Shown here in pieces: positions 4,841 to 63,583 of a DNA stretch of 64,000 bases (the stretch's first letter is position 1; every line of letters starts with the position of its first letter). The stretch lies in NCBI RefSeq assembly GCF_055900595.2, contig NZ_CM148325.1. One strand, given 5' to 3'. Position numbers and translations under genes: made by a program. The notes beneath the pieces are model-generated. The model saw only the letters and a program-made list of their open reading frames with translations, was not told the origin of the DNA and searched no databases.

Positions 4841-5248
4841 TTACCCCGCCCGATGATGACAGCAGCCAGAGAGATTTTCGATAATCGGGCAGTCGGCGCT
4901 GTCATCGCCAGGGCAGGCATTCGCCAGCGCCAGTAGCTGGTCGCGCATGGATTGCAGCTCCTCAATGTGTCGTTCGATCTCCGCCACTTTCTCCAGGGTG
5001 CGCCGTTTTACATCGGCGCTGTGACGCTGCGGGTCGTTAAACAGATTCACCAGTTCGCCGCTCTCTTCCAGGTTAAAGCCCACCTGGCGCGCCTGGCGCA
5101 GTAAGGTCAGTTCGTTGAGATGCTGCTGCGTGTAGGTTCGATAACCATTTTCGCTGCGCATCGGCGGCGTCACCAGCCCCTTTTCTTCATAGAAGCGAAT
5201 GGCTTTGCTGGTCAGGCCGGTAATTTTTGCTACATCGCTAATGTTCAT
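4841..5248 (-). CDS. cueR: MerR-family copper-responsive regulator CueR
   Basis: 135-aa translation [26 protein letters not shown]...[24 protein letters not shown] recognised as E. coli CueR. Confidence 0.95.
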
Positions 5249-20500: not shown

Positions 20501-23500
20501 TGTTGCCTGCCGCATCGGTAATGGCCGCAGTGATGGTTTGCGGGCCGCTGCCCAGCGCAGTGACGTCTGCTGCCGGAACGCCGACGCTCCAGTTGCCGGA
20601 GGCGTCCAGCGTGGTGGTATAAGTTTTACTGTTTAACGTGATGGTGATGACATCGCCCGCTTCGCCGCCAGTGCTGGAACCGGAGATCACCAGCGCCTGT
20701 CCGTGTTCGGCGGCGTTAATGATGTCATCGCCGGAGACGGTGTTAATGGTTAAAACTGGCACGGTGAGATCCACCGCCAGGCCGTGAGTGGCGGTCGCCG
20801 GGTTACCCGCTTTGTCGCTTACCGAGGCGCTGACCGTGTACGGGCTGGCGGTCAGATTGCTGAGATCCGCCGTCGGCACGCTGACGCTCCAGCTACCGCC
20901 CGCCTGAACGGTGCCGATGTAAGCCACACCATTAAGCGTGACGGTTACCGTTTGCCCCGCTTCGGCGGTGCTGGTGCCGCTGATGGTTAACGGATTGCCC
21001 GCCTCAGCGGCGTTAAGAATATCGTCTGTGGCAATAGTGTTAATGGCAAGCGTCGGTGCCGTGGCGTCGACGCTGTAGGCGTGGGTTGCCGAAGCCGTGT
21101 TGCCGTTAATATTGCTGACACTGGCCTGTACCGTGGCGTCGCCGTCACGTAACGCGCTGAGATCGGCGGTGGGTAGAGTAGTTGTCCAGCTACCATCGCC
21201 CGCTACGGTAGCAATATAGGTTTTGCCGCCAAAGGTGACGGTGACGGTTTGCCCCGCTTCCACGCCGGAAGTGCTGCCGGAAAGGGTTAACTCTGCCCCT
21301 TTTTCAGCGGCATTAATCACATCGTCGCCGGAAACGGTGTTAATGGAGATCGCCACCGCCGCCAGATCGACGGTGACCGGATGGGTGATGGTGGAGGTTG
21401 TTCCGGCAGTGTTAGTGCCGCTTACCGTGATATCCACCGTCCCCGCAGGCCAGTTGCCCACGTCTGCCGCCGGAACGCCAACGCTCCATGTGCCATCGGC
21501 TAATACTGTCGCAGCGTAAGTGACCGTGTTAATCACCACTGTCAGCGCCGCGCCCGCCGCCAGCCCGCTGCTGCTACCGGTTATCACCAGTGCCTGAGCG
21601 TGCTCGATGCTGTTGACCACATCATCGCCCGCCACGGTATCGACGCGCAGACCCGGCAGGTTGGCGTCTATCACAATATCGCGCGAACCGCTGCCAGTAT
21701 TACCCACGCCGTTGGTTACCGAGGCATTAACTGTCAGTTCGCCATTACCGATAGCCTGAATATCCGCCGCCGGAACGTCCACGCTCCAGCTAAAATTGCC
21801 CTGCACGGTAGCGGTGTAGGTTTTCCCGCCAATCGCCACGGTAACCGTATCGCCCGCCGCCGCACCCGTCACCTGGCCGCTGATGGTCTGCGCCACGCCC
21901 GATTCCGCCGCGTTAATAATATCGTCGGTCGCCACCGGATTAATGGTGACACCCGGCAGCGCGGTATTCACCTGCACGTTATGGCTGGCGGAATTGCTGT
22001 TGCCCGCGCTGTCGGTGACGTTCGCCGTCACCGTGTAACTGGCGTCGCCCAGCGCACCGACGGCAGAGGCTGGCACCGTGGTGCTCCAGTTGCCTGCGGC
22101 GTCCGTCGTGGCGGAGTAATTTTGCCCGTTAAGCGTCACCGTAATTGTGGTGCCTGTTGGCTGATTACTGGTGCCGGAAATTTGCAGATCCGCGCCTTTT
22201 TCCGTGGCATTAATCACGTCATCGCTGGCAATGGGGTTGATGCCAATGGTCGGCGCGGTAAGGTTAACGGTGACCGTGTGCGTCTCGTTGTCGCTGTTGC
22301 CAGCCACATCGGTAACGGTCGCCGTCACGGTTTGCGGGCCGCTGCCCAGCGCAGAGACATCCGCAGCCGGAACGCCGACGCTCCAGTTTCCGGAGGCGTC
22401 CAGCGTGGTAGTGTAGGTTTTATTGTTTAGCGTGACGCTGACGATATCGCCCGCCTCCCCGCCAGTGCTGGAACCGGAAATCACCAGCGCCTGCCCGTGT
22501 TCGGCGGCGTTAATAATATCATCGCCCGCAATGGTGTTAATGGTCAGTACCGGAACGGTGAGATCCACCGCCAGATTATGCGTGGTGCTCGCCGGGTTGC
22601 CCGCTTTGTCATTGACCGTCGCCGTCAGGGTATGGCTGCCATCGGTCAATGCCTCAAGATCTGCCGCCGGAATAGTAATACTCCAGCTGCCGTCCGCCTG
22701 CACTGTTGCCTGATAGGTCTGCACGGTCGGGCTGTTAAGCGTTACCGTAACAATCTGCCCCGCTTCAGCGGTGGTGCTGCCGCTCACCGTCACGCCCGCA
22801 TCGGCTTCGCTGGCGTTGACGATATTGTCGCTGGCGACGGTATTGATAATGATGGTTGGCGCGCTGCTATCGACGCTGTAGTTATGCACCGCCGAGGCGC
22901 TATTGCCATTGATATTGCTGACGCTGGCCTGCGCGGAGGCGCTGCCCTCAGGTAATGCTGCCAGATCGGCGGCAGGAACGGTGGCAGTCCAGCTACCATC
23001 GCTCGCCACGCTGGCGGTGTAATTTTTCCCGCCAAAGTTGACGGTGACGGTTTGTCCTGGCTCTACATTAGTGGTGGTGCCGGAAAGAGTTAAATCAGCG
23101 CCTTTTTCTGCGGCGTTAATCACGTCGTCCGTGGCGATGGTGTTGATTGTGATCGCCGCCGGAGTGAGATCCACCGTTACCGGATGCGTAATGCTCACCG
23201 GATTTCCGGCGCTACTTTCCCCGGATACAGCAATAGACACTGTTCCCGCAGGCCAGGCGCTAACCTGCGCCGCCGTGACGCCCACGCTCCAGCTACCATC
23301 GACCTGCACCGCAGTGGTGTATTCCACATTATTAATCGTAACTGTAAGCGGGGTGCCTTCTGCCAGCCCCGAGCTGCTGCCGGTGACCACCAGCGCCTGC
23401 CCGTGTTCGATGATATTGACCACATCATCGCCCGCTACCGTATCGACCCGCAGACCGGGCAGATTGGCGTCGATGGTGATATCCCGCGTGCCGCTGCCGG

Positions 23501-26500
23501 TGTTGCCGTTTTGATTGGTGACCGAGGCGCTCACCGTTAAATCACCATTACCCAGCGCCTGAATATCCGCCGCCGGAACGCTCACGCTCCAGCTTAAACC
23601 GGCCTGCACGGTGGTGCTGTAAGTATTACCGCCCAGCGTAACGGTTACCGTGTCGCCAACGGCGGCTCCAGTCACCTGCCCGCTGATGGTTTGCGCAGCC
23701 CCCGCTTCGGCGGCGTTAATAATATCGTCGGTTGCCACCGGGTTAATAGTCACGCCGGGCAGCGCGCTGTCGACCAGCACGTTATGGCTGGCGGTGGCGC
23801 TGTTGCCGATATCGCTGGTCACCGCCGCCGTTACCGTATAGTTGGCCTGGCCCAGTGCGGTTACCGCCGATGCCGGAACGGTGACGCTCCAGTTACCGGA
23901 GGCGTCGGTCGTGGTGGTGTAATTTTGCCCGTTCAGCGTCACTGTGATGGCGGTATTAACAGGCTGATCGCTGGTGCCGGTAATTTGAACATCGGCCCCT
24001 TTTTCGCTGGCGTTAATCACATCATCGCCCGCAATGGTGTTAATGCCAATCACCGGCGCGGCGGTATCAACCGTGACGGTCAGTGACTGGCTACCCGTAT
24101 TTCCGGCGCGATCAGTCACTGAAACGTTGATCGGATAACTGCCGTCCACCAGTCCGCTGACAACGGAGGCCGGAACGCCCAGACTCCAGTTGCCGGAAGC
24201 ATCCACCACCGTGGTGTAATCCACATCATTCAGCGTAACGGTGACAATATCGCCCGCCTGCGCGCCGGTGACCGTGCCGCTGATGATTTGCGCCTGGGTA
24301 TGTTCCGGCGTGTTAATGACGTTATCGGTTGCCACCGGATTAATGGTCACCACCGGCGGCGTGGCATCGACCAGCGCCACCCGTGAGACGCTGGTCGGAT
24401 TACCCGCGACATCGTTCACGCTCGCGGTCACCGTGGCGTTGCCGTCAGCCAGTGCGCCAACGTTGGCGGCGGGAACGGTCACGCTCCAGGAGCCAACTGA
24501 CTGCACGACGCCCTGATAGGTCTGCCCATTAAGCGTGACGGTCACCGTCTGCCCCGGCTGAGCGTCGGTGGTGCCAGTGATTTGCAGATCCTGACCACTT
24601 TCGGCGGCGTTAATGATGTTATCAGCCGTCAGCGAGTCGATGCTTAAAGCCGGAGCCAGGCTGTCGACGGTAATGGTGCGGGAGGTGTCGCCTGTGTTAC
24701 CGCTGATATTAGTAACGGTCGCAGTGATTTCCGTCGCACCGTCTGCCTGGCTACTCACCGCGCTGGCGGGAACGGTCAGGCTCCAGCCGCCACCTGCCTG
24801 AACGGTAGTGGTAAAGGTCTGCCCGGCGAATTTCACTACTACGGTTTGCCCGGTTTCCACCAGCTGCGTGGTACCGGTCAGCGTCAATGGCGCGCCTTTT
24901 TCTGCGGCATTGATAATGTCATCGCCGGAGACGGTATTGATGGTAATAAGCACCGCGCCCGGATTAACCTCCACGTTGCGATCGATAGTAACCGGGTTCC
25001 CGGCGGGGTCCGTTGCGCTGGCATTAACCACTATCGTACCCGGCGTCAGTGCCTGTAGATCTGCCGCAGGCACGCCTACCTGCCAGTTGCCGTTGCTGTC
25101 GGTCACCCCCTGGTAGGTGTTGCCGCCGAGCAAAACAGTGACCACTCTTCCGGCGGACAAATTAGTACTGCTACCGGTGATAATCAGGTTTTGCTGCTGC
25201 TCAACGGCATTGATCACATCATCGCCCGCGATGGTGTCAATGCGCAGCCCCGGCAGCCCGGCGCTGATGGTGATATCAAGCGCACTGCTACCCGTATTGC
25301 CATGTACGGTAGTAACCGAAGCATTAATGGTTAACGCACCATCGCCCAGCGCCTGTAAATCTGCCGCCGGAACGTTCACGCTCCAGGTGAGATTGCTGCC
25401 CACCGTCGCCGTGTAAGTATTGCCGCCCAGTTCAATAGTGACCGTATCGCCCTGCGCGGCGCCCACGACGACGCCACTCAGGGTTTGATCTGCTCCCGCT
25501 TCGGCGTTGTTGACAATGTTGTCGCCCGCAAAGGTGTTGATGATCACCTGCGGCAGCACCGTATCGACCAGCAAATTGCTCTGCGCGGTGCCAGTGTTGC
25601 CGGTCACATCGGTGGCGCTGGCAGTGACGGTGTAATTGGTGTTCGCAAGATTAACAACATCACTCACCGGAACGCTCAGCGACCAGACGCCGCCGCTGAC
25701 CTGAGCGCTATACGTGACATTATTCAACGTCACGCTAACTGTACCGCCATCGGGCAAATTGCTGGTGCCGCTTAACGTTAGCGGCTGCTGAGACTCCAAC
25801 GCATTCAGTACGTTATCTCCGCTGATAGCATCTATCGCGACTTGCGGCGCGACGCCCGCCAGGGTGATGTTATGAGTCGCTGTACCGGTATTTCCGGCGG
25901 CATCGGTCACCGTGACGATAATATCGTTAGGGCCACGCGCTAGAGTGCGAGTTACCGCCGGATCAAGCGCCACATTCCAGCTACCGTCTGCCTGCACCAC
26001 GCCGGACAGAACTGTGGCGCCTAACTTGACGGTGACCGTGTCGCCAGGGGAAGCCCCACTGACCCGCCCGGAAATAATCTGCGCCACAATCTGTTCGGCG
26101 GTATTAAGAATATCGTCACCCGCAACGGTGTTAACGCTGACCACTGGCGCACCGGTGTCTACTGTGAAATTTACGCTGTTGCTGGTGGTGTTTCCTGCCC
26201 GGTCGCTGACGCTGGCATTTATGGCGTAGTCGCCATCTGCCAGCGCCTGCACTTCTGCGGCAGGCAGCGTCACTTGCCAGGTTCCGTCACTACCGACAGT
26301 TGCTGTGTGGCTTTTCCCGTTAACGGTCAGTGTTACGGTTTGCCCGGCTTCTGCGTTCGAAGTGCCGCTCACTACCAGCGAGGCATTATGTTCTGAGGCG
26401 CTGACAATGTTGTCCTGAGCGATGGTGTTGATTGCAAGTGTTGGCGGCTGGGTATCGACCGTTAGCAGCTGCGCTCCGGTGACCGTATTGCCCGTGGCAT

Positions 26501-27668: not shown

Positions 27669-29024
27669 TTATTTTAAGTCGGGTAAGTCGTTGTATAAGC
27701 CCTGTTTAATTCCCGCTAATGGAATAAGGTTATTCACCGCAGCGGCATAATTTACGGCGGCGACCCAGCCATCATAATTGGCATTTATTTCAGCCGATTG
27801 CGCCTGAAAAACATCTTGCTCGACGGTTAATAGATCATTCAGGCTTCGGTTACCCAATTTATATTCATTTTGATAAACATCCCGCGTTCTGTGCGCACTT
27901 TCGGATTGCGCTAAACCGGCCTCTTCACGTCCCCGTGCCCCAGTCCAGTTGGCATACGCCACCGACGCCCGTTGCATAACATCTAATTTCGCCTGCTCAA
28001 CCTGCGAGGCAGAGATTTTTTGTTGCCCTTCGGCCTGTTGCACCTGGGCTGAAACCGCGCCGCCCTGATACAACGGCGCGTTGACGTTCAGTTGTAACTG
28101 GTCATCCCAGTACGAGCGGTCGCTGGTCTGGTAGCGCGTTTTGCCGCCCTGAATACTGAGCGTCGGCCAGTATTGCGATTTGGTTTTTTCCACACCGTAC
28201 TGAGCAGACTGACGTAAGTTTTCTGCCGCCAGAACCAGCGGTATGGACTGGTAATCAATATTTTTTAGCGACACTGGCTGCTCGGCTAATTCAGCAGGTG
28301 GCGCGGCTATCCTCTCCGGCTGTACACCAGTGAGCACCGCCAGTTGCGCTTTGGCGCTTGCCATTTGCGCCTGGTATTGCTCCAGCGTCGAGCGCATTGC
28401 CGCTATACGCGTCTGTGCCTGTAATTCATCGGATGATGAGTTAAGCCCGGCGTTGGCGCGCAGTGCCGCCATGTTGTAGACATTTTCCAGAGAGTGAATA
28501 TTACGCTGCGCAGCGTCGCACAACGCCTGATATCGGCTCACTTCCATATAGGTCGTCGCCGTTTTTTCGGCTACGTCAGTTAAGGTTGCCATCAGTTTAA
28601 AGCGGTAGCTGTCACGAGCGGCGGTTTGTAGTTTGATATCGTTATCTGTTTTACCGAAGTCATACACCAGCTGCGTCAGGGTTATGCCATAAGAGACGTT
28701 GTTATCCAGCCTGCCGCTGGAGTCCGTTTGCCGGGACGGCCCCGCGTTGCCGGTTAATCCAACGTGTGGATACCAGGCACTTTTGGCTTCATCGATTTGC
28801 GCTTCGCCAATACCTATCTGCGCCGCCTGTTGAGTGACGTCGGGATTTCGCGCAAAGGCGCGTAATATACTTTCCTGTAAAGATAATCGGGCAACTGGCG
28901 TTACCGCTGGGGCGTTCGCCCATTGTGGCAGCGGTGCAGCAATTGTAGCTTCTCCCATCACCATAAAACTTATTAAAAAAATAAGTCCATTATTTTTACG
29001 GTTTTTAAACTGGAATCGCGCCAT
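27669..29024 (-). CDS. TolC-family outer membrane channel of the type I secretion system
   Basis: 451 aa with signal peptide and two repeated coiled-coil/beta halves typical of outer membrane efflux proteins; first gene of the OMP-adhesin-ABC-MFP cluster. Confidence 0.85.
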   Translation of the reverse strand: MARFQFKNRKNNGLIFLISFMVMGEATIAAPLPQWANAPAVTPVARLSLQESILRAFARNPDVTQQAAQIGIGEAQIDEAKSAWYPHVGLTGNAGPSRQTDSSGRLDNNVSYGITLTQLVYDFGKTDNDIKLQTAARDSYRFKLMATLTDVAEKTATTYMEVSRYQALCDAAQRNIHSLENVYNMAALRANAGLNSSSDELQAQTRIAAMRSTLEQYQAQMASAKAQLAVLTGVQPERIAAPPAELAEQPVSLKNIDYQSIPLVLAAENLRQSAQYGVEKTKSQYWPTLSIQGGKTRYQTSDRSYWDDQLQLNVNAPLYQGGAVSAQVQQAEGQQKISASQVEQAKLDVMQRASVAYANWTGARGREEAGLAQSESAHRTRDVYQNEYKLGNRSLNDLLTVEQDVFQAQSAEINANYDGWVAAVNYAAAVNNLIPLAGIKQGLYNDLPDLK

Positions 29025-31868: not shown

Positions 31869-32882
31869 CTACCTCCCTTTTTCCTCAAAATGTGGACACT
31901 CAATGGACATATCACATAGCGGATTATGCATCACAGCATCGCTTAAATAATCCGGCGAAAAATGCGCATAAGTCATTGTCTGAGATATATCTGCATGACC
32001 GAGGATTTTTTGAAGAGAAATAATATTCCCCCCATTCATCATAAAATGGGTGGCAAATGTATGCCTCAATACATGAACCGCTTGACCGTCCGGCAAATTA
32101 GGCTTAGCCACCTTCAGTTTCAGCCTAAACCATTTATAACTCACCCGAAATAAACGCCCCTCCTTGCGATGTTTTACAAGCCTAACAACATCATCAGAAA
32201 CAGGAACAACCCGACGCTTATTATTTTTTGTGAAATTAAATACAACCTTATTACCGATAATATGTTCCCCCATTAGCTGATATGCTTCATTCCAGCGACA
32301 GCCTGTAGACAACAAAAGGACAGCCATTCGGTAATAATCTCCCGAACCCTTGCAGATAGAAAGAAACGCACCAATCTCTTCATGATTAAGATAAGCCATC
32401 TCTGGGGTTTTTTCCTTGAGGCGAGGAAGCGACAATACAGGGTTACTACCGTGATATTCACCAATCTCTGCCATAGCCTTTAACGCAGCGCTAAACGCAA
32501 AAAGATCATGGTTGATTGTAGATGCCTTAACCCCTTGATCGAGACGGCGCGATCTATATTCAGCAACCATGCGTTCATCAATCTCGTACATCATAGGGTC
32601 ACCCATATCAAGACAAATACACTGGAGGTTATTCAGTCTACGATTCGCGTAATCCTTGTGACGACCTATCAGTAACCACCACGTCGCAATGAAATCGCTT
32701 AAATATCGCTTGTCCAGAAGATTACCGAAAACATCAACAGAAGGGCGATCAGCAAGAACTTCGCGTTCAAATGCTACAGCCAGATTTTTTTTCTCAAACT
32801 TCCGACGAATGCGCCTTCCCTTACTTCCGTCGGGTCGAATGTCCACAAAATAGCGACCATCTTCGAGCTTCTTAATTGACAT
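31869..32882 (-). CDS. int: P2-family tyrosine integrase
   Basis: MSIKKLEDGRYFVDIRP... close to P2 Int N-terminus; C-terminal R..H..R..Y catalytic region (HVLRHTFATH, MTYAHF); ORF track start 32912 probably too far upstream. Confidence 0.9.
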   Translation of the reverse strand: MSIKKLEDGRYFVDIRPDGSKGRRIRRKFEKKNLAVAFEREVLADRPSVDVFGNLLDKRYLSDFIATWWLLIGRHKDYANRRLNNLQCICLDMGDPMMYEIDERMVAEYRSRRLDQGVKASTINHDLFAFSAALKAMAEIGEYHGSNPVLSLPRLKEKTPEMAYLNHEEIGAFLSICKGSGDYYRMAVLLLSTGCRWNEAYQLMGEHIIGNKVVFNFTKNNKRRVVPVSDDVVRLVKHRKEGRLFRVSYKWFRLKLKVAKPNLPDGQAVHVLRHTFATHFMMNGGNIISLQKILGHADISQTMTYAHFSPDYLSDAVMHNPLCDMSIECPHFEEKGR

Positions 32883-32951
32883 AAGAAGACCCTCCAACAG
32901 TCCATTCTCCATCTTGAAAACAGATAGAGAAAACGTATTCCTTATAAAGAG

Positions 32952-42484: not shown

Positions 42485-42757
42485 TTAGTATGTTGTCGAG
42501 GTTCTCCGCTGAATACGGAGGATCCTGATAACCACTATCTGCCCTCCCTCAATCGTGAACCTGACACGGTAATGATTTACCCTGAGTCTGTACTCCCCGC
42601 CCGAGTCAGTGAGCTTTTTAATATCCAGATTCTGGAACTTCGGATAGCCATAAAGCGCGTTAACTTTCTCGCGTAAGGATTTCTGATCCCTCGCTGGCAA
42701 AACCCGTAAATCTTTGATTGCCCGAGGGGTCCACATGATTTCAGTCGTCATAAACAC
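42485..42757 (-). CDS. RelE/ParE-family type II toxin
   Basis: ~90 aa with the ...EYRLRVNHYRVRFTIEGGQIVVIRILRIQRR core typical of RelE/ParE toxins. Confidence 0.7.
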   Translation of the reverse strand: MFMTTEIMWTPRAIKDLRVLPARDQKSLREKVNALYGYPKFQNLDIKKLTDSGGEYRLRVNHYRVRFTIEGGQIVVIRILRIQRRTSTTY

Positions 42758-53843: not shown

Positions 53844-54740
53844 ATGCCTTCCGTTGACCTGTCACAGTTACCGGAACCGGCCATCATCGCGCAGCCGGAT
53901 TTTGAGTCCATCCTGGCAGACATTAAAACCATGATGGTGAGCTCCTTCCCGGAAGAATACCGCGCCGCCGTCACCCGTGCCCTTACTCTGGAATCCGAGC
54001 CATTGAACATCATTTCCCAGGCCATGGCCTTTCGTGAAATGCTGCTTCGCCAGCGCATCAATGAAGCCGCCCGCGCCTGCATGCTCAGCCACAGCCGGGG
54101 CAGTGACCTGGACAATCTGGCTGCCAACAACAACACCCGCCGCCTGGTCATTCATCCGGCCACTGATACCACGGAAGCAGTGATGGAAAGCGACACATCG
54201 CTGCGTCTGCGTGCCCAGTCAGCCTGGGACGGCCTGAGTGTGGCCGGACCGTCCGGCGCGTATGAGTATTTTGCCCGGAGCGCAAGCGGTCTTGTCCGTG
54301 ATGCGCGCGCCATCAGCCCGTCACCGGCCACAGTCACCGTCTCCATCCTGTCAGCAGACGGTGACGGCACCGCCGGTGAGGCGTTACTGAACACGGTGCG
54401 CACCGCCCTGAATGCCGAGAACGTGCGCCCGGTTGCCGACCGCCTGACTGTGCAGAGTGCTACCATCGTGAACTGGGAAATGGAAGCGAAGCTGTATTTT
54501 TATCCAGGGCCGGAGTCTGAACCCATGCTTGCGGCCGCTGACGCCGCTTTCCGTGCATGGCTGGCAGACCAGGGCCGTATCGGTCAGGATGTGGCCCTGT
54601 CAGCCATCACTGCAGCGCTGCATGTTCACGGTGTCCAGCGCGTTGAGGTCATAAAACCCACGCAGAACATCACCATCAGTGACACTCAGGCAGCCAGATG
54701 TACCACATTCAGCATCAGCGAAGGAGGACGCAATGAGTGA
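53844..54740 (+). CDS. J: baseplate protein J
   Basis: 298 aa at the J position. Confidence 0.85.
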   Translation: MPSVDLSQLPEPAIIAQPDFESILADIKTMMVSSFPEEYRAAVTRALTLESEPLNIISQAMAFREMLLRQRINEAARACMLSHSRGSDLDNLAANNNTRRLVIHPATDTTEAVMESDTSLRLRAQSAWDGLSVAGPSGAYEYFARSASGLVRDARAISPSPATVTVSILSADGDGTAGEALLNTVRTALNAENVRPVADRLTVQSATIVNWEMEAKLYFYPGPESEPMLAAADAAFRAWLADQGRIGQDVALSAITAALHVHGVQRVEVIKPTQNITISDTQAARCTTFSISEGGRNE

Positions 54741-55461
54741 CAGGAAAAAAACAGACAGCGCACAGCACAGTACATCACTGCTTCCACCGTCCGCAGGGCC
54801 ATTCATGCGCGCCACAGAGGCGACAGGAGTACGCATCAGTACCATACCGGTGGACGCCGACACCCTGTGGTCGCCGGACCGCTGCCCTGCTCACCTCCTG
54901 CCCTACCTTGCATGGGCATGTTCCGTTGACCGCTGGGACCGCAACTGGCCGGAAGAGACCAGACGACAGGTGATTGGCCAGTCCTGGAAGGTACACCGCC
55001 AGAAAGGAACGGTCAGCGCACTGAGGGAAACAGCCGCAGCATTCGGTTATGAGATGACCATCAGTGAATGGTGGGAGCATGGAGGGCAGCCGGGCACCTT
55101 TACTGTGACCATCGGGGCAGACACTCAGGGCATCGGCCCTGAAACATGGCTGGAGATGGAGGATCTGCTCAATGATGCACGTCCGGTTTCACGTCATATG
55201 ACGGGGCTTTATGCCGCCCTGCGTTCTGGCGTGACGGTTTACTGCGCTGCGGGAGCAGGCTGTGATGAGCTTGTAACCATTCACCAGAAAGCTCGCGCCT
55301 CCCTGGCGGGCCAGGTGACCATCATCGCAGCAGGAGACACACACACAACCGACAGTGTGACCGTACTGCCGGGGGTTCCGTCAGGTATGTACGGGGAGAT
55401 CTGTATCCGTACCGGCGCAGGTATATTCGTGAGTGAGATTGTGGAGGTTATCACCTTATGA
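54733..55461 (+). CDS. I: baseplate/tail protein I
   Basis: start MSDRKKTD with RBS aaggagg, overlapping J stop. Confidence 0.8.
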   Translation: MSDRKKTDSAQHSTSLLPPSAGPFMRATEATGVRISTIPVDADTLWSPDRCPAHLLPYLAWACSVDRWDRNWPEETRRQVIGQSWKVHRQKGTVSALRETAAAFGYEMTISEWWEHGGQPGTFTVTIGADTQGIGPETWLEMEDLLNDARPVSRHMTGLYAALRSGVTVYCAAGAGCDELVTIHQKARASLAGQVTIIAAGDTHTTDSVTVLPGVPSGMYGEICIRTGAGIFVSEIVEVITL

Positions 55462-56573
55462 ACACCGATTTTTATTCCGTTCTGACGGATGCCGGGCTGA
55501 AAAAACTGGCGGCAGCCGCAGCATCAGGGAATCAGATGAAAATCACCCATATGGCTGTAGGCGACGGAAACGGAAAAGCCGTAACACCCGGCAGGGCCGA
55601 CACCAGGCTTGTCAGGGAAAAATACCGTGCGCCACTGAACAGTCTGGAAGAAGACACAGAGAGACCGGGGCATGTTATCGCAGAAATGGTGATACCTGAA
55701 AAACAGGGAGGGTGGTGGATCAGAGAATTCGGATTATTCGACGAAGACGGCGGAATGATTGTTACAGGCAAATTTCCTGACACATGGAAGCCTGCACCTG
55801 GTCAGGGTGGAGCACGACTGATATCAGTGAAAGTGGTTGTGGCAGTATCACATACAGAAAACATTGTGCTGAAAGTGGATCCTTCTGTTGTCATGGCAAC
55901 CCGGGAATGGGTGAACACAAAAGCAGAGCAGTTAAAGAAAGAGCTCAGACAACCTGATGCAACCACCAAAACAAAAGGCATTGTTCAGCTTAGCAGTGAC
56001 ATCAACAGCACCTCTGAAACGCAGGCTGCCACCCCCGGAGCGGTAAAAGCCGTGAATGATCGTGTGGACGGAAAACAGGACGCGGATCCCACGCTCACAT
56101 CTCTGTCCGGGAAAAATGCACAGCAACTGAGGCAGCTTCTGGGGCTGGGCACGCTTGCCACCCTGAACAGGGGCACCGGTTCAGGGAATGTGCCGGACAT
56201 GAGTCACTTTGCGAGTAAAAAAGCAGACTACGGTTACCAGTGTTTTCCTGGCGGCATAATGATCCAGTGGCTGCGGATCCCCTCAGACCACACAGAAAGA
56301 GCTGTCAGTCAGGAAGCCCGGGTGGCACTAAGCGGCGTGCGACTGTTTTCAGTGGAGGGTAACTGGAACGGTAATAACATGATTAAGACCCTGGCAAACT
56401 ACCAGTGGCCGAGAGTTTTCGGGGCAATTTATGCGACCGTTGCAACCAGGAATCACGGATCTGCATGGCGAGTATATCCGGTGTCCGCGAACAAGGATGT
56501 GCGTGTCGTATCCATTGCCTGGGCGGGAGAAGGTACAGATGACACTTATGTGGTTGGGGTGGGAAGAGTATGA
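55458..56573 (+). CDS. H: tail fibre protein (gpH-like conserved N-terminus, short divergent C-terminal receptor-binding region)
   Basis: N-terminus MNTDFYSVLTDAGLKKLAAAAASGN..ITHMAVGDGNG resembles P2 H; 371 aa versus ~670 in P2. Confidence 0.8.
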   Translation: MNTDFYSVLTDAGLKKLAAAAASGNQMKITHMAVGDGNGKAVTPGRADTRLVREKYRAPLNSLEEDTERPGHVIAEMVIPEKQGGWWIREFGLFDEDGGMIVTGKFPDTWKPAPGQGGARLISVKVVVAVSHTENIVLKVDPSVVMATREWVNTKAEQLKKELRQPDATTKTKGIVQLSSDINSTSETQAATPGAVKAVNDRVDGKQDADPTLTSLSGKNAQQLRQLLGLGTLATLNRGTGSGNVPDMSHFASKKADYGYQCFPGGIMIQWLRIPSDHTERAVSQEARVALSGVRLFSVEGNWNGNNMIKTLANYQWPRVFGAIYATVATRNHGSAWRVYPVSANKDVRVVSIAWAGEGTDDTYVVGVGRV

Positions 56574-57016
56574 AAATGATGTGGTCGCCGTCTGTGGGCG
56601 GTTTTTTTGGTGAAGACAGCAGCCATATACCGGAAGATGCGGTGGAGGTTGATGAATCGATGTGGAGCAGGATGATGGAGGGACAACTTGAGGGAAAAAT
56701 TATCGTTAACGGCCCTGACGACCTGCCTGTTCTGGAAGAGCGTCCGGGACCGGGGCCAGAAGAATACCGGCATCAGGCTCGCCTTGAGCTTGCTGACCTT
56801 CGCCGACAGGGGCTGGAACACATAGAGTCGATGCGCTGGCGTGACAAAGCGGTCATGAACAGGCTGGGAGAAGAGGAGAAGCAGGAGTATAACGCCTGGC
56901 TTGACTGGCTCGACGCGCTTGACAGTACGGACATATCAGGGGCACCGGATGTGGTGTGGCCGGTGATGCCCGTCACGGTGGTTCCTGAACATCCTCAGAA
57001 AAAATTGCCGGAGTGA
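56570..57016 (+). CDS. tail fibre assembly chaperone (Tfa/gpG-like)
   Basis: C-terminal ...YNAWLDWLDALD...VVWPVMP resembles the conserved Tfa C-terminus. Confidence 0.65.
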   Translation: MKMMWSPSVGGFFGEDSSHIPEDAVEVDESMWSRMMEGQLEGKIIVNGPDDLPVLEERPGPGPEEYRHQARLELADLRRQGLEHIESMRWRDKAVMNRLGEEEKQEYNAWLDWLDALDSTDISGAPDVVWPVMPVTVVPEHPQKKLPE

Positions 57017-57022
57017 ACAGCC

Positions 57023-57050
57023 TCCGGCCTGAGACTGCACTCAGGCCGGA
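57023..57050. terminator. bidirectional terminator hairpin between convergent tfa and U
   Basis: 11-bp stem tccggcctgag / ctcaggccgga. Confidence 0.55.
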
Positions 57051-57057
57051 AATTCTG

Positions 57058-57504
57058 TTATCTGCCAGCATTGCGGATGATACCCGAAAGCATATCAGAC
57101 ACCGACGGCATCATTCGCTCCCGCAAATCCTCATCACAGCGTTCCATACTGACAGTGAACTCAATTTTTTTGGCCTTACCGTGGCGGTCAAGTTCGCTTC
57201 GCGTTGTGCGGACAGCCGTTATCACATACATGCCGTATATCTGCCCCACACCGTCAATCAGCGGCCATGGGCGGCCAGTGTAAGCCTGCGTCGTTAAAAG
57301 GCTGAGGGAAACCTCACCGCCGGTAATTTCGGGATAAAGCACACCGGACAACGTGATCTGGTCGTCACCCGCCCCGATATACTGCCAGCTGGCCGAACGA
57401 TTGATGCGTTCATTTTTAACGTGGCGCCAGGTTTTATTATGTTGCAGTTGTTGATGAGGCAGCGTGCGCAACTCAAAAACAAACATGCCGTAAATCATCA
57501 TCAT
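57058..57504 (-). CDS. U: tail protein U
   Basis: 148 aa; MMMIYGMFVFELRTLPHQ...ITLSGVLYPEITGG...GRPWPLIDGVGQIYGMYVI resembles P2 U. Confidence 0.85.
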   Translation of the reverse strand: MMMIYGMFVFELRTLPHQQLQHNKTWRHVKNERINRSASWQYIGAGDDQITLSGVLYPEITGGEVSLSLLTTQAYTGRPWPLIDGVGQIYGMYVITAVRTTRSELDRHGKAKKIEFTVSMERCDEDLRERMMPSVSDMLSGIIRNAGR

Positions 57505-57515
57505 GCGAGGTACTC

Positions 57516-60500
57516 CTAATCTCTGTCACGGAAACTACCGACTGTCTGGCGGATACGGCGTTCCATTTCCGCACGGACGGCATCACCCACCATTTTTGCC
57601 AGTTCGCGCGGGTTTTGCGTGTGAACATCATGCAGGTGAATATGCAGTTCGCCAGTTAATCCCCATGGTGCCGGATCACTCTGACGCGGTCGGGGCGATG
57701 CGGGGGATATGGGCTGGCGCACAGCCTCAACCACCGGACGGGATGTTGCCGTTACGACGGGTGTCATTACCGGCGCAATATTGCCGGACACTACCGGTTT
57801 AATTACCGGGGAGAGCGTCGGTATAACATCGCCAGCCATAACCGGTTTGATCGCTGGCGAAATAACCGGAGCAACAGACTCAGCCATGACGGAACTGACA
57901 GGCTGAGGCGCTCTCACTATGCCAGCATCGATAACCAGCATGAGCTCGCGTACTGCCTCAAGGACAGGACGGGATATTGCCGCCATCACTGGTGTCATTA
58001 GCGGGGAGAACGTCGGCATGACATCGTGAGTCATAACCGGTTTGATCACCGGCGAAACCACCGGCGTAATATTACCGGACAGTACCGGACGGACGACCGG
58101 AGGAATAACCGGCACATTATTCACGGACACCACCGGCTTCACGACCGGCGACACGTTCGCCGTGGTGGATATCAGCGGCGAAACACTGACAGGCGGTGGC
58201 GCTGGCAGCGGTGGCAACGAAGGCACACTGACCGACGGCACCTGCGGCAGTCTGACAGGTGGCTCACTGACACTACCCGGTAACAGGGAAGCTGCGCGGT
58301 TAAAGCGTTCCTCCTTCCACTCACCACGAACGGCCAGCGCTTCCGGCAGGTTTTTAAAGATAATATCGCCGGGACCAGTGCGTTTTTTCGCCTGTTTCGC
58401 CTCATCCAGCAGGCCACCGGTGTTATCGACGATTTTATTCAGGCGACGCATGGTGCCGGTATTCTCCCCCGTCAGCGGAGCAGTTGCTGCAGGTGCAGGT
58501 ACTGGCGGCTTTTTGTCTTTGTCATTTTGCGGCGGATTAATGACATTAACATCCGCCAGGAGCATGGCGGCTTTCTCGTTCAGCAGCTCCTTCTGCTTCA
58601 GCTCTTCCGCCTTTTTCCGGGCGCGCTCAACCGCCGACGGAATCAGCCCGAGTTTTTCCAGCACCCGGGTTAATGAGTCAATCAGCAGCGTAACCGGACC
58701 GGTCACCAGATTGCTGATAAACTCCCCGACCTTCTGCCCGAACGTCCGCCCGGCTTCCGTGCACTTGTCCAGCTCATCCTTTGTTGTGCTTACCGGCGCG
58801 AACAAATCCACGAACCACTGCCACACACGCCCGATTGTCTGCCCGACATACTCAAACAATGGTCCCAGTGGTGCCACAGCCTCGCGCAGTGGCGTAAGCC
58901 CCTGCCACAGGCCGGACAAGAACCCGCCCACGACAGCCTTCAGCTGGTCCCAGTGCCGCCAGATAAGCACTGCCGCACCGACCAGTGTCGCCACCACAAG
59001 GCCCACCGGACTTAACAGAAAACCCAGCGCCCCGCCAAGTGCGCCCACCGCACCACTCACCATCCCCCACAGTGCGGGCAGACCTGACAGTCTGAGCGCC
59101 AGTATTCCGATACCGCGCCCCAGTGAAATCAGTGCGCCGCCAGGTGAAGTGAACGCAGCCAGCAGACCACCACGCAGCGCGCCAAGTCCCGCCTGCACAC
59201 CACGAAGCCGCCCCGCAACTACGCCCAGCAGTGCAGCAAACCGTCCGGCACCGGAGGTGATACCGACAAACAGCACGCGCCAGCCACCGATACCGCCCAG
59301 CGGACCACCGAGTACGCCGCGCAGCTGCGTCAGTAACGGCAGCGCACGACCGAGGCCGGATGTGCCGGTCAGCAGGGCAAACCCAAGACGCAGTTTTGCC
59401 AGCGGCCCCATCAACACACCAGTGGCAAGTGACAGCGCCCCCATGGCCGCAACCGCAGCCAGCAGTGCACCACCGGCAATCAGCAGTTGTTTTGTCAGTT
59501 CAGGGTGCGCCTGGGCCAGCGCGGTGACTTTCGCAATAACCCGGGTGAACGACTGCGTGACAGAACGCAGCGGCCCGTCAACGAGGTCAGCGACACGGAT
59601 ACGCAGCCCTTCCCATGCGCTGTTCAGTGATTTCAGGTCGCCGTCCAGGTTGTCCGCCATGATTCTGGCGTTTTCTTCCAGTTCGCCGTTCGCTGCCTGA
59701 ATCTCACGCGTCAGGCGCGGCAGGTTTTTTTCGCCTGCCTGTTCAACCAGGCTCATCAGGGAGACATACGCCTCCTGCCCGGCAATATCTGAAAAGAACG
59801 AGACTTTTGCCGCGTTACCGTATTTACGGGTGGCCTGATACAGCTCATACAGGATATCTTCCATCGGGCGCATGTTCCCGTAAGCATCCTGCGTTTCCAC
59901 GCCCAGCTGTTTCAGCGCCTTTGCTGCCGCTTTAGGCGGGTTCACAAGGCGGGACAGACTGGAGCGCAGCGCCGTACCAGCATCACTGCCACGTATCCCC
60001 ATCGACCCAAGCAACCCGGTCATGGCTGCGGTCTGTTCAAGAGACAGACCGAGTGAGGCGGCGACCGGTCCCGTATATTTCATCGTCTCACCAAGCCCGC
60101 GCAGGTCGGTATTGGTGCGGGTGAACGTTGCGGCCAGCGTGTCACCCACGCGGTTCATCTGGTCGGCAGACAACCCGAACTGCGTAAGGATATTTGAGCT
60201 GATATCGGCCGTCTGACCGAGGTCCATGCCGCTGGCCGTTGCCAGATTCAGCACGCCGGGAAGAGCCGCCTGTATCGCCTGCGGCGTGAACCCCGCCATG
60301 GCAAGGAACGCCTGACCGCTGGCAGCATCACCTGCGGTAAACTGCGTTTCGGAGCCGAGTTTAAGCGCCTGTTCGCGCAGCGCCTTAAACTGCGGACTGT
60401 TTTTGTCAATACGGGTCAGCGCCTGGACGCGCGACATCTCCTTACCAAAACTGACCGCCGGTTGCAGGAAACGCCCGGCCGCATAGCCACCTGCCGCTGC

Positions 60501-61094
60501 CGTGCCGACTGCCGTAAATCCACCCGCTTTCAGTTTTCCCGCCATCTCCTGAGCGCGGAAATATTGCTGGCGTGCCTGCGTGACGCGTGCCAGAGTCTGC
60601 CGTTCACGTTCCAGCTGTTCGTTGTATTGCTGTGTTCGCCGTATGGCCTGTTGAATGGTGTTGTCACTGCCGGAAAGCGCAATACCGTGACGCCGCAGCT
60701 CACCACCCAGTTCGCGCATTCGCTGAACTTCACGCGCACGGACCTCATTGAGACGCTCAAGTTTGAGGCTCAAATCGTTCATCAGCTTTTTCTGTTTGTC
60801 AGACAGCACGGTTCCGGCGCGCTGAATTTGCTGAAGTGCGCTTAACTGGCGTTGTGCCCGGGCAATGCCGTTTCCGGCCTTGTTTGCAGCCTCGCGGGCG
60901 CGATCAAATGAACGGGCGTGGCGTTCCAGGTTTTTGATCGCACCCTGCGTTCTCTGTATGGAGTCGCCAAGCTGGCCCATCATGCGACGGGCGTTTTCGG
61001 TGGGACGGGTCAGCCTGTCAACAGCGCTGAAGGCGACCCGTATATCAAGCGTTTTCATGCTCTGCGTTCCCGCTGCGAAGGGCCGCCCGCTCAC
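57516..61094 (-). CDS. T: tail tape measure protein (gpT-like, 1,192 aa, with Pro/Val-rich tandem repeats near the C-terminus)
   Basis: long helical protein with a transmembrane-like glycine-rich central region; located between E and U. Confidence 0.85.
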   Translation of the reverse strand: MSGRPFAAGTQSMKTLDIRVAFSAVDRLTRPTENARRMMGQLGDSIQRTQGAIKNLERHARSFDRAREAANKAGNGIARAQRQLSALQQIQRAGTVLSDKQKKLMNDLSLKLERLNEVRAREVQRMRELGGELRRHGIALSGSDNTIQQAIRRTQQYNEQLERERQTLARVTQARQQYFRAQEMAGKLKAGGFTAVGTAAAGGYAAGRFLQPAVSFGKEMSRVQALTRIDKNSPQFKALREQALKLGSETQFTAGDAASGQAFLAMAGFTPQAIQAALPGVLNLATASGMDLGQTADISSNILTQFGLSADQMNRVGDTLAATFTRTNTDLRGLGETMKYTGPVAASLGLSLEQTAAMTGLLGSMGIRGSDAGTALRSSLSRLVNPPKAAAKALKQLGVETQDAYGNMRPMEDILYELYQATRKYGNAAKVSFFSDIAGQEAYVSLMSLVEQAGEKNLPRLTREIQAANGELEENARIMADNLDGDLKSLNSAWEGLRIRVADLVDGPLRSVTQSFTRVIAKVTALAQAHPELTKQLLIAGGALLAAVAAMGALSLATGVLMGPLAKLRLGFALLTGTSGLGRALPLLTQLRGVLGGPLGGIGGWRVLFVGITSGAGRFAALLGVVAGRLRGVQAGLGALRGGLLAAFTSPGGALISLGRGIGILALRLSGLPALWGMVSGAVGALGGALGFLLSPVGLVVATLVGAAVLIWRHWDQLKAVVGGFLSGLWQGLTPLREAVAPLGPLFEYVGQTIGRVWQWFVDLFAPVSTTKDELDKCTEAGRTFGQKVGEFISNLVTGPVTLLIDSLTRVLEKLGLIPSAVERARKKAEELKQKELLNEKAAMLLADVNVINPPQNDKDKKPPVPAPAATAPLTGENTGTMRRLNKIVDNTGGLLDEAKQAKKRTGPGDIIFKNLPEALAVRGEWKEERFNRAASLLPGSVSEPPVRLPQVPSVSVPSLPPLPAPPPVSVSPLISTTANVSPVVKPVVSVNNVPVIPPVVRPVLSGNITPVVSPVIKPVMTHDVMPTFSPLMTPVMAAISRPVLEAVRELMLVIDAGIVRAPQPVSSVMAESVAPVISPAIKPVMAGDVIPTLSPVIKPVVSGNIAPVMTPVVTATSRPVVEAVRQPISPASPRPRQSDPAPWGLTGELHIHLHDVHTQNPRELAKMVGDAVRAEMERRIRQTVGSFRDRD

Positions 61095-61571
61095 GCCAGG
61101 CGACCACCTCGCCGGGATCCATCAGGAAGATTTCAGCGGGAGACCAGTTGAAAATAACGGCGATATCCGCCACAAAGTCTTCAATATGCTCAAAGGGCAC
61201 GACGGTTATCAGCCTGCCGTCGCCGCCACGCTCTTCCCGCCAGAGTCCTGACCGGCCAAAAAATTAACCGCCACCCCGCACAGCTGAATAAAATCAGCGG
61301 ACCCCATGCGCTTAAGCAGAACCTCGTCCAGTCGCGGCGAAGTGACGCGCGGGAGTAACTCAAACATCGCGTCCGTTTTCATGTTCAGCACGTCAAGCAG
61401 TGACAGCCCGCGCAGTGAACCGGCCTGCTGTACAGCAGGCGTGATTTCCACATACGTGATTTTTTTGTTACCGAGCACAAGGGGCGTTTTCAGCGTCACG
61501 CCGCGCTCACTGGTCACGTCCGCCGCATCAGCACCGTCAGTAACAGGGGCAACAACCGGATTTTCTTTCAT
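61045..61571 (-). other. predicted E+E' product made by -1 programmed frameshift at TTTTTTG (61257-61263), extending to a TGA at 61045 and overlapping the T start
   Basis: hand translation of the -1 frame after the slippery heptamer gives ~70 more codons. Confidence 0.5.
61209..61571 (-). CDS. E: tail assembly chaperone E
   Basis: 120-aa ORF between FII and T containing a T6G slippery site near its 3' end. Confidence 0.8.
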   Translation of the reverse strand: MKENPVVAPVTDGADAADVTSERGVTLKTPLVLGNKKITYVEITPAVQQAGSLRGLSLLDVLNMKTDAMFELLPRVTSPRLDEVLLKRMGSADFIQLCGVAVNFLAGQDSGGKSVAATAG

Positions 61572-61621
61572 GAATAAAACCTCAAATCAGGGGGCGACGC
61601 CACGCGCCGCCGTGGAAAACA

Positions 61622-62140
61622 TTAACCACCAAGACCAATCGCCGAGCGCACGCGGTCCGGGAAGACGCTTTTGCCGTCCTTGCGTTCGATGTGGTTCAGT
61701 AAATCAATCTCCAGCACCGGACGGTCGTTAATGCTGAGTTTGTAGTAGGTACTTTTGACCGCATAGGTGTGAGACGTGACCTCACCCTGTTTGGCCTCCC
61801 CGGTATCAATTTCCGTCACGCGACCGCGAAGCTCAATCTCGTACAGGTCACTCTGTTCTTCATCGTTGTAGTACTCACCGACAAAGCGCAGCAGCGTACC
61901 GTCAATCGTTCCGCCGTACTTGAGGAACAGTTCGCGGGTCGGCCCGCCCATGGTGAAACTCGCATCCAGCGCGCCGTCATCCAGGCCAAGGTCGATATTT
62001 ACTGCACCGGCCATACCACCACCGCGATAGGCTTCCGTTTTACGGGTCAGTTTGGGGGCCGTGAAGCCGGTCACTCTGCCAATCTGGTTCACCCCGTCAG
62101 TAAACAGCGTGAACACCCTGAGATTTTTTGGTACGGCCAT
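61622..62140 (-). CDS. FII: tail tube protein FII
   Basis: 172 aa, position after the sheath gene. Confidence 0.9.
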   Translation of the reverse strand: MAVPKNLRVFTLFTDGVNQIGRVTGFTAPKLTRKTEAYRGGGMAGAVNIDLGLDDGALDASFTMGGPTRELFLKYGGTIDGTLLRFVGEYYNDEEQSDLYEIELRGRVTEIDTGEAKQGEVTSHTYAVKSTYYKLSINDRPVLEIDLLNHIERKDGKSVFPDRVRSAIGLGG

Positions 62141-63423
62141 TAAGCACCTCCAAGCGTCGCAAATGCAGGACCAAAGAATTCATCAGTAAACGTCTGGTAA
62201 AGTTCCATATCCTCAAGCGGCGGAACGGGCGTGTACTTGTAGCGGATACGCACGCGTCCCTGACGAAGTTCCGTGGTGCTGTTATCCACCACGTCATACC
62301 AGCACTCCGCACCAACGAGACGTCCTGACGTAACCAGCGCATCCAGTTTTGCGCGAATTGCGCTTAACACGTCTTTCACATTAGCAGGGGTCAGCGGGGC
62401 ATCAATCGTTTCAAACTGCGCTTCCGCAACAGAATCAGCCAGCACCTGAGCGGTTCGCGTGTACACCTCAAAGATATACGCCTTCGTTTCCGGCGTACGG
62501 TTGCCCCAGAAGCGGAAACCGTTACGGCGAATGATGGTGGTGATTTCCTTGTTGTTGAGATTGTTGGCATCGCTGTCTTCGGACTGAAGGGACCAGAACA
62601 CCGGGCTGGAAATACCCAGCACATTTCTTACCGGCACGTTGGACAGCGATTTATGCCAGCCCTGTTCGTGGTCAATACGTGCACGTAAACCGCAGGCGTA
62701 CGCCGCAGCCGGGAAGACCTCATTAGCGCCGGATTTCGGGTTATGGGCGATGAAGTCAGGCCAGAGCAGCATAAGTTCGCGCTCGTTAAATCTGGCGCGG
62801 TAGCTGATTGCATCAGCGGGCTTCTTGCAGTTGTGACAGCCCGCGTAGACAAATGCGCGAAGTTTTTCTGCAATTACACACAGGGATTTTGTGACAGCTT
62901 CAGTATCCAGTCCGGGCGCTGCGATGATGCGCGGACGGTAACCGATGGCATCATCCTGTTCAGCTATCAGAAGTGCATACATACCGGTATAATTACCGTC
63001 GTCATCCGTGCCACCAATGACATACTGGTCCTGCGTTTTGTGTGGGTATACAGGATGTGCATCTTCAGACTCATCAATACCAAAAAATGCCCTGTCTTCA
63101 GGATCCAGATGACCGAATGATGTAACTCCTGTATCCGGGGCGCCCTGAGAACTGGCATCAGGAACGCGCACCACAATCACCTTCGTGCTCACCTGGTCGG
63201 CGACAGCCTTAAGTGAACGGTACAGCGTGCCCTTTGTGCCGGTCTTACCCAGCACATCACTGACGCGGGTCAGCAGTATGGGTTTGTTCAGCGGGAACAG
63301 AGTTTCATCCGCGTCATCTGCCGTAGCCACAATACCAATAACACTGGAATCCACATCATTAATGGCGGTGGTAAGGCCGGTACTTTCCCTTACGCGCGCA
63401 CCATGAAAGCGTGTTTCACTCAT
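62140..63423 (-). CDS. FI: contractile tail sheath protein FI
   Basis: strong similarity to P2 FI (KLRAF, IDHEQGWHKSLSNV, RRNGFRFWGNRT, YKYTPVPPLE); likely start MSETRF at 63423. Confidence 0.9.
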   Translation of the reverse strand: MSETRFHGARVRESTGLTTAINDVDSSVIGIVATADDADETLFPLNKPILLTRVSDVLGKTGTKGTLYRSLKAVADQVSTKVIVVRVPDASSQGAPDTGVTSFGHLDPEDRAFFGIDESEDAHPVYPHKTQDQYVIGGTDDDGNYTGMYALLIAEQDDAIGYRPRIIAAPGLDTEAVTKSLCVIAEKLRAFVYAGCHNCKKPADAISYRARFNERELMLLWPDFIAHNPKSGANEVFPAAAYACGLRARIDHEQGWHKSLSNVPVRNVLGISSPVFWSLQSEDSDANNLNNKEITTIIRRNGFRFWGNRTPETKAYIFEVYTRTAQVLADSVAEAQFETIDAPLTPANVKDVLSAIRAKLDALVTSGRLVGAECWYDVVDNSTTELRQGRVRIRYKYTPVPPLEDMELYQTFTDEFFGPAFATLGGA

Positions 63424-63583
63424 ATGTTTCACCCTTGTCTGGCTGGTTGATTTTGCGTAATCATTACCCACGATGCCGCCGGTATCATCTCCTGCCCGTT
63501 CTCACCGTTCGCTTACAACAAACAGCCGTTCACCACGGTCGCACGCCGTGAAAACATGACGGGACACACCACGAGGGCAGACC

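Follow-up and report, generated by a model that had tools for sequence, protein, structure and literature searches.

An exchanged tail-fibre cassette in a P88-like prophage

The tail fibre locus of the prophage contained in a 64,000-nt stretch of contig NZ_CM148325.1 (assembly GCF_055900595.2; referred to as the window, with all coordinates given as window positions) represents a well-resolved though ordinary instance in which a P2-family prophage of E. coli has exchanged its tail-fibre cassette. The locus comprises the tail fibre gene H, encoding a homologue of P2 gpH, and the gene for the corresponding fibre assembly chaperone. All evidence considered, we regard it as likely that this locus is the host-recognition cassette of a P88-like prophage, that it encodes a minimal fibre with a tip of the R-pyocin foot class together with a Tfa-type chaperone, that at least two recombination events gave rise to it, and that it is directed against a saccharide receptor.

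The outer limits of the exchange were evident from a comparison with the sibling prophage of E. coli SCU-115. Both prophages are 93.5% identical up to position 55022, which lies inside gpI, and 97% identical from position 57080 at the 3' end of gpU. Between these two positions, the sole DNA matches were short patches in the PF03406 fibre repeats, and the sibling carries an unrelated fibre of 626 residues, in which a Collar domain accompanies five PF03406 repeats, followed by a 203-residue chaperone. The GC content is 0.49–0.56 within the cassette and 0.60–0.64 in the backbone. In an alignment of gpI with its counterparts from the sibling, P88, P2, and phage Cartapus, the first ~84–96 residues were near-identical to those of the sibling and divergent afterwards. 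Since the DNA homology also ends at 55022, we assign the first ~84–96 codons of gpI to the backbone and regard the C-terminal half as imported. Of 5426 complete E. coli genomes, that of strain GF60 alone contained the DNA of the region 55023–55971, comprising the C-terminal half of gpI and the N-terminus of H, and megablast of the fibre region against 50,697 phage records gave no match. The closest relative of every part of the cassette is Cartapus (35% identity for the C-terminal half of gpI, 50% for the N-terminus of H, 33% for the tip, and 47% for the chaperone). We propose that one recombination event exchanged all that lies between mid-gpI and the end of gpU in a P88-like backbone, so that the docking domain of the fibre would have stayed with the section of gpI that is presumed to touch it. 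From the position of the junction and general knowledge of P2 and pyocin baseplates, we infer that the C-terminal half of gpI contacts the N-terminus of H.

A second pair of junctions was located further inside the cassette. From H codon 172 (55972), the start of the PF03406 repeat, to just past the conserved VVWP near the C-terminus of the chaperone, the window shares 999 bp at 99% identity with a prophage of E. coli LR-31. There, this module supplies the distal part of a 327–329-residue fibre plus its chaperone at the end of a tail cluster with another gene order (T, X, D, V, W, J, I, fibre). In this cluster, gpI is no more than 24–27% identical to that of the window, and the N-terminus of the fibre is unrelated. 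The PF03406 repeat may have served as a recombination patch, in keeping with its being the sole DNA similarity to the sibling fibre. The arrangement of the junctions indicates that the swap is nested and involved at least two recombination events, the second of which would have had its junction at the PF03406 repeat and joined tip and chaperone to a module circulating in another type of E. coli prophage.

An initial annotation of the locus had proposed a swapped receptor-binding module consisting of the distal half of the fibre and the chaperone, with P2 as the reference. The swap itself is upheld by both the match to the differently organised LR-31 prophage and the unrelated fibre of the same-backbone sibling, but its extent had been underestimated, as it reaches from mid-gpI through the whole of H, including the N-terminus, to the 3' end of gpU. 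The choice of reference had to be revised. The head genes share ~77% DNA identity with those of P88-type phages (Xuanwuvirus, Peduoviridae), and the gene order, including an inverted F operon (U-T-E-FII-FI on the opposite strand, then gpD), is common to the window prophage, P88, and sibling E. coli prophages. By these comparisons the backbone is assigned to the P88-like group (Xuanwuvirus) and not to P2, and P2 is thus the wrong reference genome.

A minimal fibre with a predicted foot-class tip

The start codon of H overlaps the stop codon of gpI as ATGA and is preceded by GGAGG 9 nt upstream. The N-terminal baseplate-attachment domain matched PF12571 with 171.2 bits (cut-off 23) over profile positions 1–149 of 150 and is followed by a single PF03406 repeat, while residues 207–371 had no Pfam match. 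By BLASTP, H aligned to P2 gpH with 41% identity over residues 26–218 (E 7e-47), and no alignment was obtained beyond. Residues 1–171 are 37.5% identical to H of P2, 50% to that of Cartapus, 37% to that of the sibling, and 43% to that of P88. Outside its own cluster, proteins of the collection matched the N-terminus at 52–53% identity at best. H directly follows gpI of the V-W-J-I operon and is itself followed by a Tfa gene, which is the gene order of a gpH-type fibre. Based on the PF12571 family and the operon position, H is identified as a fibre of the P2 gpH type. Thus, the open reading frames (ORFs) of the initial annotation (H at 55458–56573, chaperone at 56570–57016) were placed exactly, and its description of a P2-like N-terminus (PF12571, ~40% identity to gpH), a distal half unlike P2 (the alignment ending at residue 218), and a divergent chaperone (see below) was correct.

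The distal part of H was analysed by an exhaustive HMMER scan of 1.84 billion representative proteins using residues 230–371 as query. At E <= 1e-3, 30 proteins were obtained, about six of which cover the whole tip. One of these is a fragment with 89% identity to the window tip; the remaining whole-tip matches are of the Cartapus type, 38–39% identical, and reside on several different fibre N-termini. All other proteins matched only at the junction motif LGLG..GTG..IPDM..F..GYQ.LPGG.IQW and are bona fide members of PF21882 (Gp53-like_C; E 1e-10 to 1e-16). A scan of IMG/VR with the tip profile yielded 20 loci, all of which belong to the Cartapus subtype and none to that of the window. A word-indexed protein search with the tip alone returned a single fragment; as it missed a known cluster at 98%, this search is no guide to rarity. 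The profile-based scans indicate that the tip subtype is rare.

When the profile of the tip family was compared to that of gp53-like tips by hhalign, a probability of 99.6% was obtained (E 7.6e-25). The joint alignment of both groups is colinear to the last residue, and the corresponding joint profile matched gp53 of phage AP22 (4mtm, E 2e-12) as well as the R1 and R2 pyocin fibres. We therefore classify the tip, by sequence, as a divergent member of the gp53-like/R-pyocin foot class. The C-terminal region, initially annotated as short and unrelated, is indeed unrelated to that of P2 but belongs to a recognisable class. Some results weigh against this classification. The window tip did not match PF21882 even at E <= 1 (gathering threshold 24.9 bits), and the confidence of the hhalign comparison resides mainly in the N-terminal third with its motif LGLG...GTG..IPDM...GYQ.LPGG.IQW. 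In addition, a Foldseek search of the PDB with the better of two AlphaFold2 models gave no significant match. H of Cartapus and protein P0125 reached only 15 bits against PF21882, and the narrow tip profile had one marginal match among PDB sequences (E 0.47). AlphaFold2 modelling of the distal part from the single sequence gave an unusable model with a predicted local distance difference test (pLDDT) score of 40.5, and the joint alignment led to a mediocre model with a pLDDT of 64.9 and values of 70–86 in the beta core. Because this model depends on the same sequence evidence as the classification, a foot-type jellyroll fold of the tip is rated as probable. Taken together, H would represent a minimal fibre, in which a gpH-type docking domain is joined through a single fibre repeat and a short linker to a lectin-like jellyroll tip of the AP22 gp53/R-pyocin foot class. 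The coordinates of all features are listed in Table 1.

Table 1. Features of the fibre locus and its surroundings (window positions; aa, amino acids).
Feature	Position	Strand	Extent and evidence
Replaced cassette	55023–57079	+	C-terminal half of gpI, H, chaperone, hairpin, last gpU codons; blastn against SCU-115 prophage
Module common with E. coli LR-31 prophage	55972–56970	+	H aa 172–371 and chaperone aa 1–134; 99% DNA identity, 999 bp
gpI baseplate protein	54733–55461	+	242 aa; PF09684, E 2.4e-44
Tail fibre gene H (gpH homologue)	55458–56573	+	371 aa; ORF, Pfam, PHROGs (tail fibre)
Baseplate-attachment domain PF12571 (Phage_tail_fib)	55458–55904	+	H aa 1–149; Pfam, E 1.8e-50
Single fibre repeat PF03406	55962–56075	+	H aa 169–206; Pfam, E 2.6e-16
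Tip domain, divergent gp53-like/R-pyocin-foot-like jellyroll (fold probable)	56163–56570	+	H aa 236–371
Enlarged hypervariable loop	56283–56375	+	H aa 276–306; at distal loop L1 position of the foot domain, by alignment
Tail fibre assembly chaperone	56570–57016	+	148 aa; PF02413 (Caudo_TAP), E 2.1e-15; phrog_188, E 3.7e-33
Chaperone, N-terminal part	56570–56758	+	aa 1–63; common only to same-class tips
Chaperone, conserved Caudo_TAP region	56759–56971	+	aa 64–134
GC-rich hairpin	57023–57050	.	11-bp stem; in the 41-bp gap between convergent chaperone and gpU
gpU tail protein	57058–57504	-	PF06995, E 6.7e-41; convergent with fibre operon; last ~7 codons within replaced cassette

The chaperone accompanies the tip

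The start codon of the chaperone gene overlaps the stop codon of H as ATGA, and this overlap, like that between gpI and H, points to translational coupling. The protein scored 57.4 bits against PF02413 (gathering threshold 22.1). The best alignment to P2 gpG was not significant (E 0.96) and comprised residues 64–134 only, which is also the only part that could be aligned to the chaperones of P88 and the sibling. In contrast, the chaperone is 98.5% identical to that of LR-31, with two residue differences over residues 1–134, and 47% identical to that of Cartapus over residues 1–136, and full-length alignments were obtained only with chaperones of the same tip class. These comparisons indicate that tip and chaperone co-vary and travel together. 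The division into a variable and a conserved part matches the two-part model of Tfa proteins as outlined in PMC9608196, citing North et al. 2019, in which a variable N-terminal domain binds the fibre and a conserved C-terminal domain serves trimerisation. By family membership, the chaperone is predicted to function in folding of its cognate fibre. We propose that it is the cognate Tfa of H, the variable N-terminal part being suited to this tip class and the conserved C-terminal part being a generic Caudo_TAP region that would drive trimerisation.

Two hairpins occur at the chaperone gene. A terminator-like hairpin with a T-run is located just within its 5' end (56583–56603, plus strand) and is either a coincidental match or a possible attenuator of chaperone expression. 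The GC-rich hairpin behind the gene looks like a terminator, with a weak T-run.

A hypervariable loop and the putative receptor

Between the IQW strand and the YQWPRVF strand, the tip contains an enlarged loop that represents an insertion relative to Cartapus-type and gp53-like tips and exceeds the equivalent segment of the Cartapus type by ~20 residues and that of AP22 gp53 by ~27. Among 12 near-identical alleles at the protein level, 11 of the 21 variable positions are located in residues 276–306 (hypergeometric p 4e-8), and several of the variable loop sites have three alleles each. Natural alleles, ~77 in all, include an E280/L291/L296 and a Q280/Q291/R296 type. At the DNA level, the window allele was compared to five others, four distinct full-length alleles and the distal part from LR-31; the GF60 copy adds no new site. 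The loop contained 11 codons with nonsynonymous and 1 with synonymous variation, compared to 8 nonsynonymous and 3 synonymous codons among the other 340. Such a pattern would be expected of a receptor-contacting loop under diversifying selection, and we propose the loop as the main specificity determinant. Two points weigh against this view: the sample of alleles (5 other DNA alleles, 12 proteins) is small, non-random, and uncorrected for relatedness, and the loop could be variable through lack of constraint rather than selection. A diversity-generating retroelement was considered and rejected, as the window contains no second copy of 56231–56430 that might act as template repeat and as the substitutions occur at all four bases without adenine bias.

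It is conceivable, but in our estimate rather doubtful, that the tip represents an unrecognised foot-domain subfamily confined to E. coli prophages, in which the ~30-residue loop diversifies and sets strain-level specificity for a polymorphic surface structure. If so, the 371-residue fibre and the 148-residue chaperone would constitute a natural minimal scaffold to retarget P2-type phages or R-type tailocins.

P2 adsorbs to lipopolysaccharide (LPS) (PMC9594776). The R-pyocin foot is a lectin-type jellyroll, the distal loops L1, L3, and L5 of which are the proposed binding site for the LPS core, and R pyocins bind LPS core sugars (PMC6363177). Because the tip is unrelated to that of P2, a receptor specificity different from that of P2, as initially annotated, is plausible; the combination that would have spoken against it, an alignment of the distal region to a characterised tip of known specificity together with P2 host range, was not encountered. 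By analogy, the receptor class may nevertheless be the same as that of P2, with a different specificity, as the pyocin foot class binds LPS sugars too. We propose that host recognition occurs through the distal tip loops, most probably by binding to a surface saccharide such as LPS. No specificity can be transferred from a relative, because no indicator strain is known for Cartapus (PMC9928086), which alone among sequenced phages carries a related tip; this counts against the proposed receptor.

Alternative explanations

It is hardly credible that no exchange took place and that a remote relative of P2 simply diverged from it by vertical descent over a long time. The whole prophage is distant from P2, and the N-terminus of H, with ~40% identity to that of P2, resembles other structural genes in this respect. 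However, this explanation is contradicted by the sharp homology breaks relative to a sibling prophage with 93–97% identical flanks and by the 99% identical module in a prophage with an otherwise unrelated tail cluster, and the shift in GC over the cassette argues against it as well. The exchanged gene might also be a non-working deletion remnant of a longer fibre, leaving the prophage adsorption-defective or cryptic. H is far shorter than its counterparts in P2 (669 residues), P88 (764 residues), and the sibling (626 residues) and has one PF03406 repeat left, and in GF60 the Prokaryotic Genome Annotation Pipeline (PGAP) marks the neighbouring gpI and tape-measure genes as incomplete while an IS21 element breaks the sheath gene. 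We consider this quite improbable, since all functional modules are present in H, which has the same C-terminal end motif as its relatives, and since near-identical intact 371-residue alleles occur on several hundred E. coli contigs, with the exact H in public collections and the exact chaperone on 462 E. coli contigs. In every context read, gpI (242 residues), chaperone (148 residues), gpU (148 residues), and tape measure (1173–1192 residues) are intact, and the sheath gene of the window is uninterrupted. The LR-31 fibre is likewise short, and the same minimal architecture exists in an independent fibre (P0137, 377 residues, PF12571 + PF03406 + PF21882).

A functional fibre gene could still represent one phase of an invertase-switched system of the Mu G, P1 C, or P88 type with alternative tips. 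In P88 and Cartapus, a DNA invertase and an inverted second tip and chaperone follow directly after this position, and stand-alone tip ORFs are frequent among the relatives of the tip; in these, a short non-fibre leader, MPFARYFCIFINVGLG or MMPVSRYLCIFINVGLG, leads straight into the conserved junction motif. In the window, only 41 bp separate the stop codons of the chaperone gene and gpU, leaving no room for an invertase gene and a second tip. No crossover core of the AAACCnnGGTTT type was found in or near H, and neither an invertase gene nor inverted alternative tip or chaperone ORFs were found beside the fibre genes in the window. The chance that the locus is part of such a system is minute; the window prophage has a single, fixed tip. 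Finally, the chaperone might remain on the mature fibre tip and itself add to or provide receptor binding, as does Tfa of phage Mu. According to PMC9608196, citing North et al. 2019, Tfa of Mu and Ur-lambda is present in mature virions and that of Mu aids receptor recognition, and the chaperone constantly accompanies the tip, at 99% identity in LR-31 and 47% in Cartapus. However, the allelic variation gathers in the loop of H and not in the chaperone, which differs from that of LR-31 at only two of residues 1–134, and in R pyocins the proposed adhesin is the foot domain of the fibre (PMC6363177). A role of the chaperone in binding is thus unlikely, and receptor recognition by the fibre tip is preferred.

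Comparison to known systems

Among sequenced phages, Cartapus (an Elveevirus, prophage 4 of E. coli LF82; NC_070909) comes closest in each section of the cassette. Its gpI is likewise extended at the C-terminus, its tip is 32–33% identical with the same C-terminal end, and its chaperone is 47% identical. It differs from the window in a longer shaft, H comprising 473 residues, in a tip loop that is shorter by ~20 residues, in the presence of a Gin-like invertase with an alternative tip, and in a backbone of another genus. P2 (NC_001895) has in common with the window the operon position (V-W-J-I-H-G), PF12571 and PF03406 in H (37–41% identity), and a PF02413 chaperone. It differs in H, which comprises 669 residues and combines two PF03406 repeats with a Gp34_trimer domain and a tip of unrelated sequence, and in that its F operon lies on the same strand as H and G. 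P88, with the related backbone, has a 764-residue H, a P2-type chaperone, and an invertase with an alternative tip. The R1 and R2 pyocin feet (6cxb, 6cl5, 6cu2, 6cl6), AP22 gp53 (4mtm), and PF21882 resemble the window tip in being C-terminal on myovirus or tailocin fibres with a gpH-type N-terminus, in the shared junction motif, and in the need for a Tfa-type chaperone, which is presumed for the window tip; however, the identity is only 12–19%, and the window tip is below Pfam detection.

For P2, the horizontal transfer of tail-fibre tips with their chaperones between unrelated phages was already described in 1992 (Haggard-Ljungquist et al., cited in PMC9594776). Tail-fibre mosaicism being textbook knowledge, the significance of the locus is limited. 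It provides a clean natural example with two nested junctions, in which the adaptor half of gpI moved with the fibre docking domain and the other junction lies at the fibre repeat. Mildly interesting aspects are this co-transfer of half of gpI, the presence of the module at 99% identity in a prophage of another type, and the rare foot subtype with its enlarged hypervariable loop. With such a loop, the compact tip could be of use in predicting host range in E. coli and in engineering P2-based or pyocin-based antibacterials.

Stand-alone tip ORFs with a MPFARYFCIFINVGLG or MMPVSRYLCIFINVGLG leader were P0127, P0129, P0133, P0134, P0139, P0142, and P0148. From general knowledge of invertible fibre segments, we take these to be silent alternative tips of invertase-switched systems, in which case invertase crossover would take place at the (N)(V/L)GLG junction motif.

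Prophage backbone and neighbouring genes

By Pfam, the fibre locus is preceded by P2-type gpV, gpW, gpJ, and gpI and followed by gpU on the opposite strand. The gpI protein has a C-terminal extension of 55 residues (55284–55461) past the end of gpI in P2, P88, and the sibling, which may be part of the fibre docking site; the extension is shorter in Cartapus (26 residues). The GF60 copy of gpI is classified as incomplete by PGAP, and an intact 242-residue gpI is called in other E. coli contigs. The convergent layout of gpU and chaperone is a trait of the lineage, as it also occurs in P88 and sibling E. coli prophages. An inverted F operon as an anomaly tied to the cassette was rejected, since this orientation is present in P88 and all siblings. 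The tail genes U, T, E/E', FII, and FI occupy 57058–63471 on the minus strand and are thus inverted relative to P2; gpD begins at ~63584 on the plus strand, a start mapped over from strain GF60. As FI and gpD are divergent, separate or bidirectional late promoters would be needed.

The prophage starts with an integrase gene (31869–32912) and the gpA replication gene. From position 42700 to its end, the window is 99.3–99.7% identical to the chromosome of E. coli GF60, except for an IS21 element in the GF60 sheath gene. This element (istAB) belongs to the GF60 locus 19441–23370 (L002), corresponding to window positions ~62140–63471. The prophage is apparently intact as judged from its genes, and as its sheath gene is uninterrupted, the window copy is probably likelier to be inducible than that of GF60.

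The tape-measure ORF (57516–61094, minus strand) encodes 1192 residues compared to 935 in P88. Proline and valine are abundant in its C-terminal third, which also contains imperfect repeats of ~90 nt at 57778–57869 and 57974–58064 (80% identical); Tandem Repeats Finder reported no repeat in this gene. In GF60 and SCU-115, the gene is a pseudogene according to PGAP, and other gene callers predict intact proteins of 1173–1180 residues. A 552-residue ORF on the opposite strand (58042–59700) is probably spurious. On the host side, the window contains an ORF of 6325 residues (8583–27560, minus strand), flanked by genes for an HlyD-family protein (5245–6420), a 720-residue ORF (6417–8579), and an outer-membrane efflux protein (27669–29024). 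By its predicted products, the region 5245–29024 has the appearance of a giant adhesin locus accompanied by a type I secretion system.

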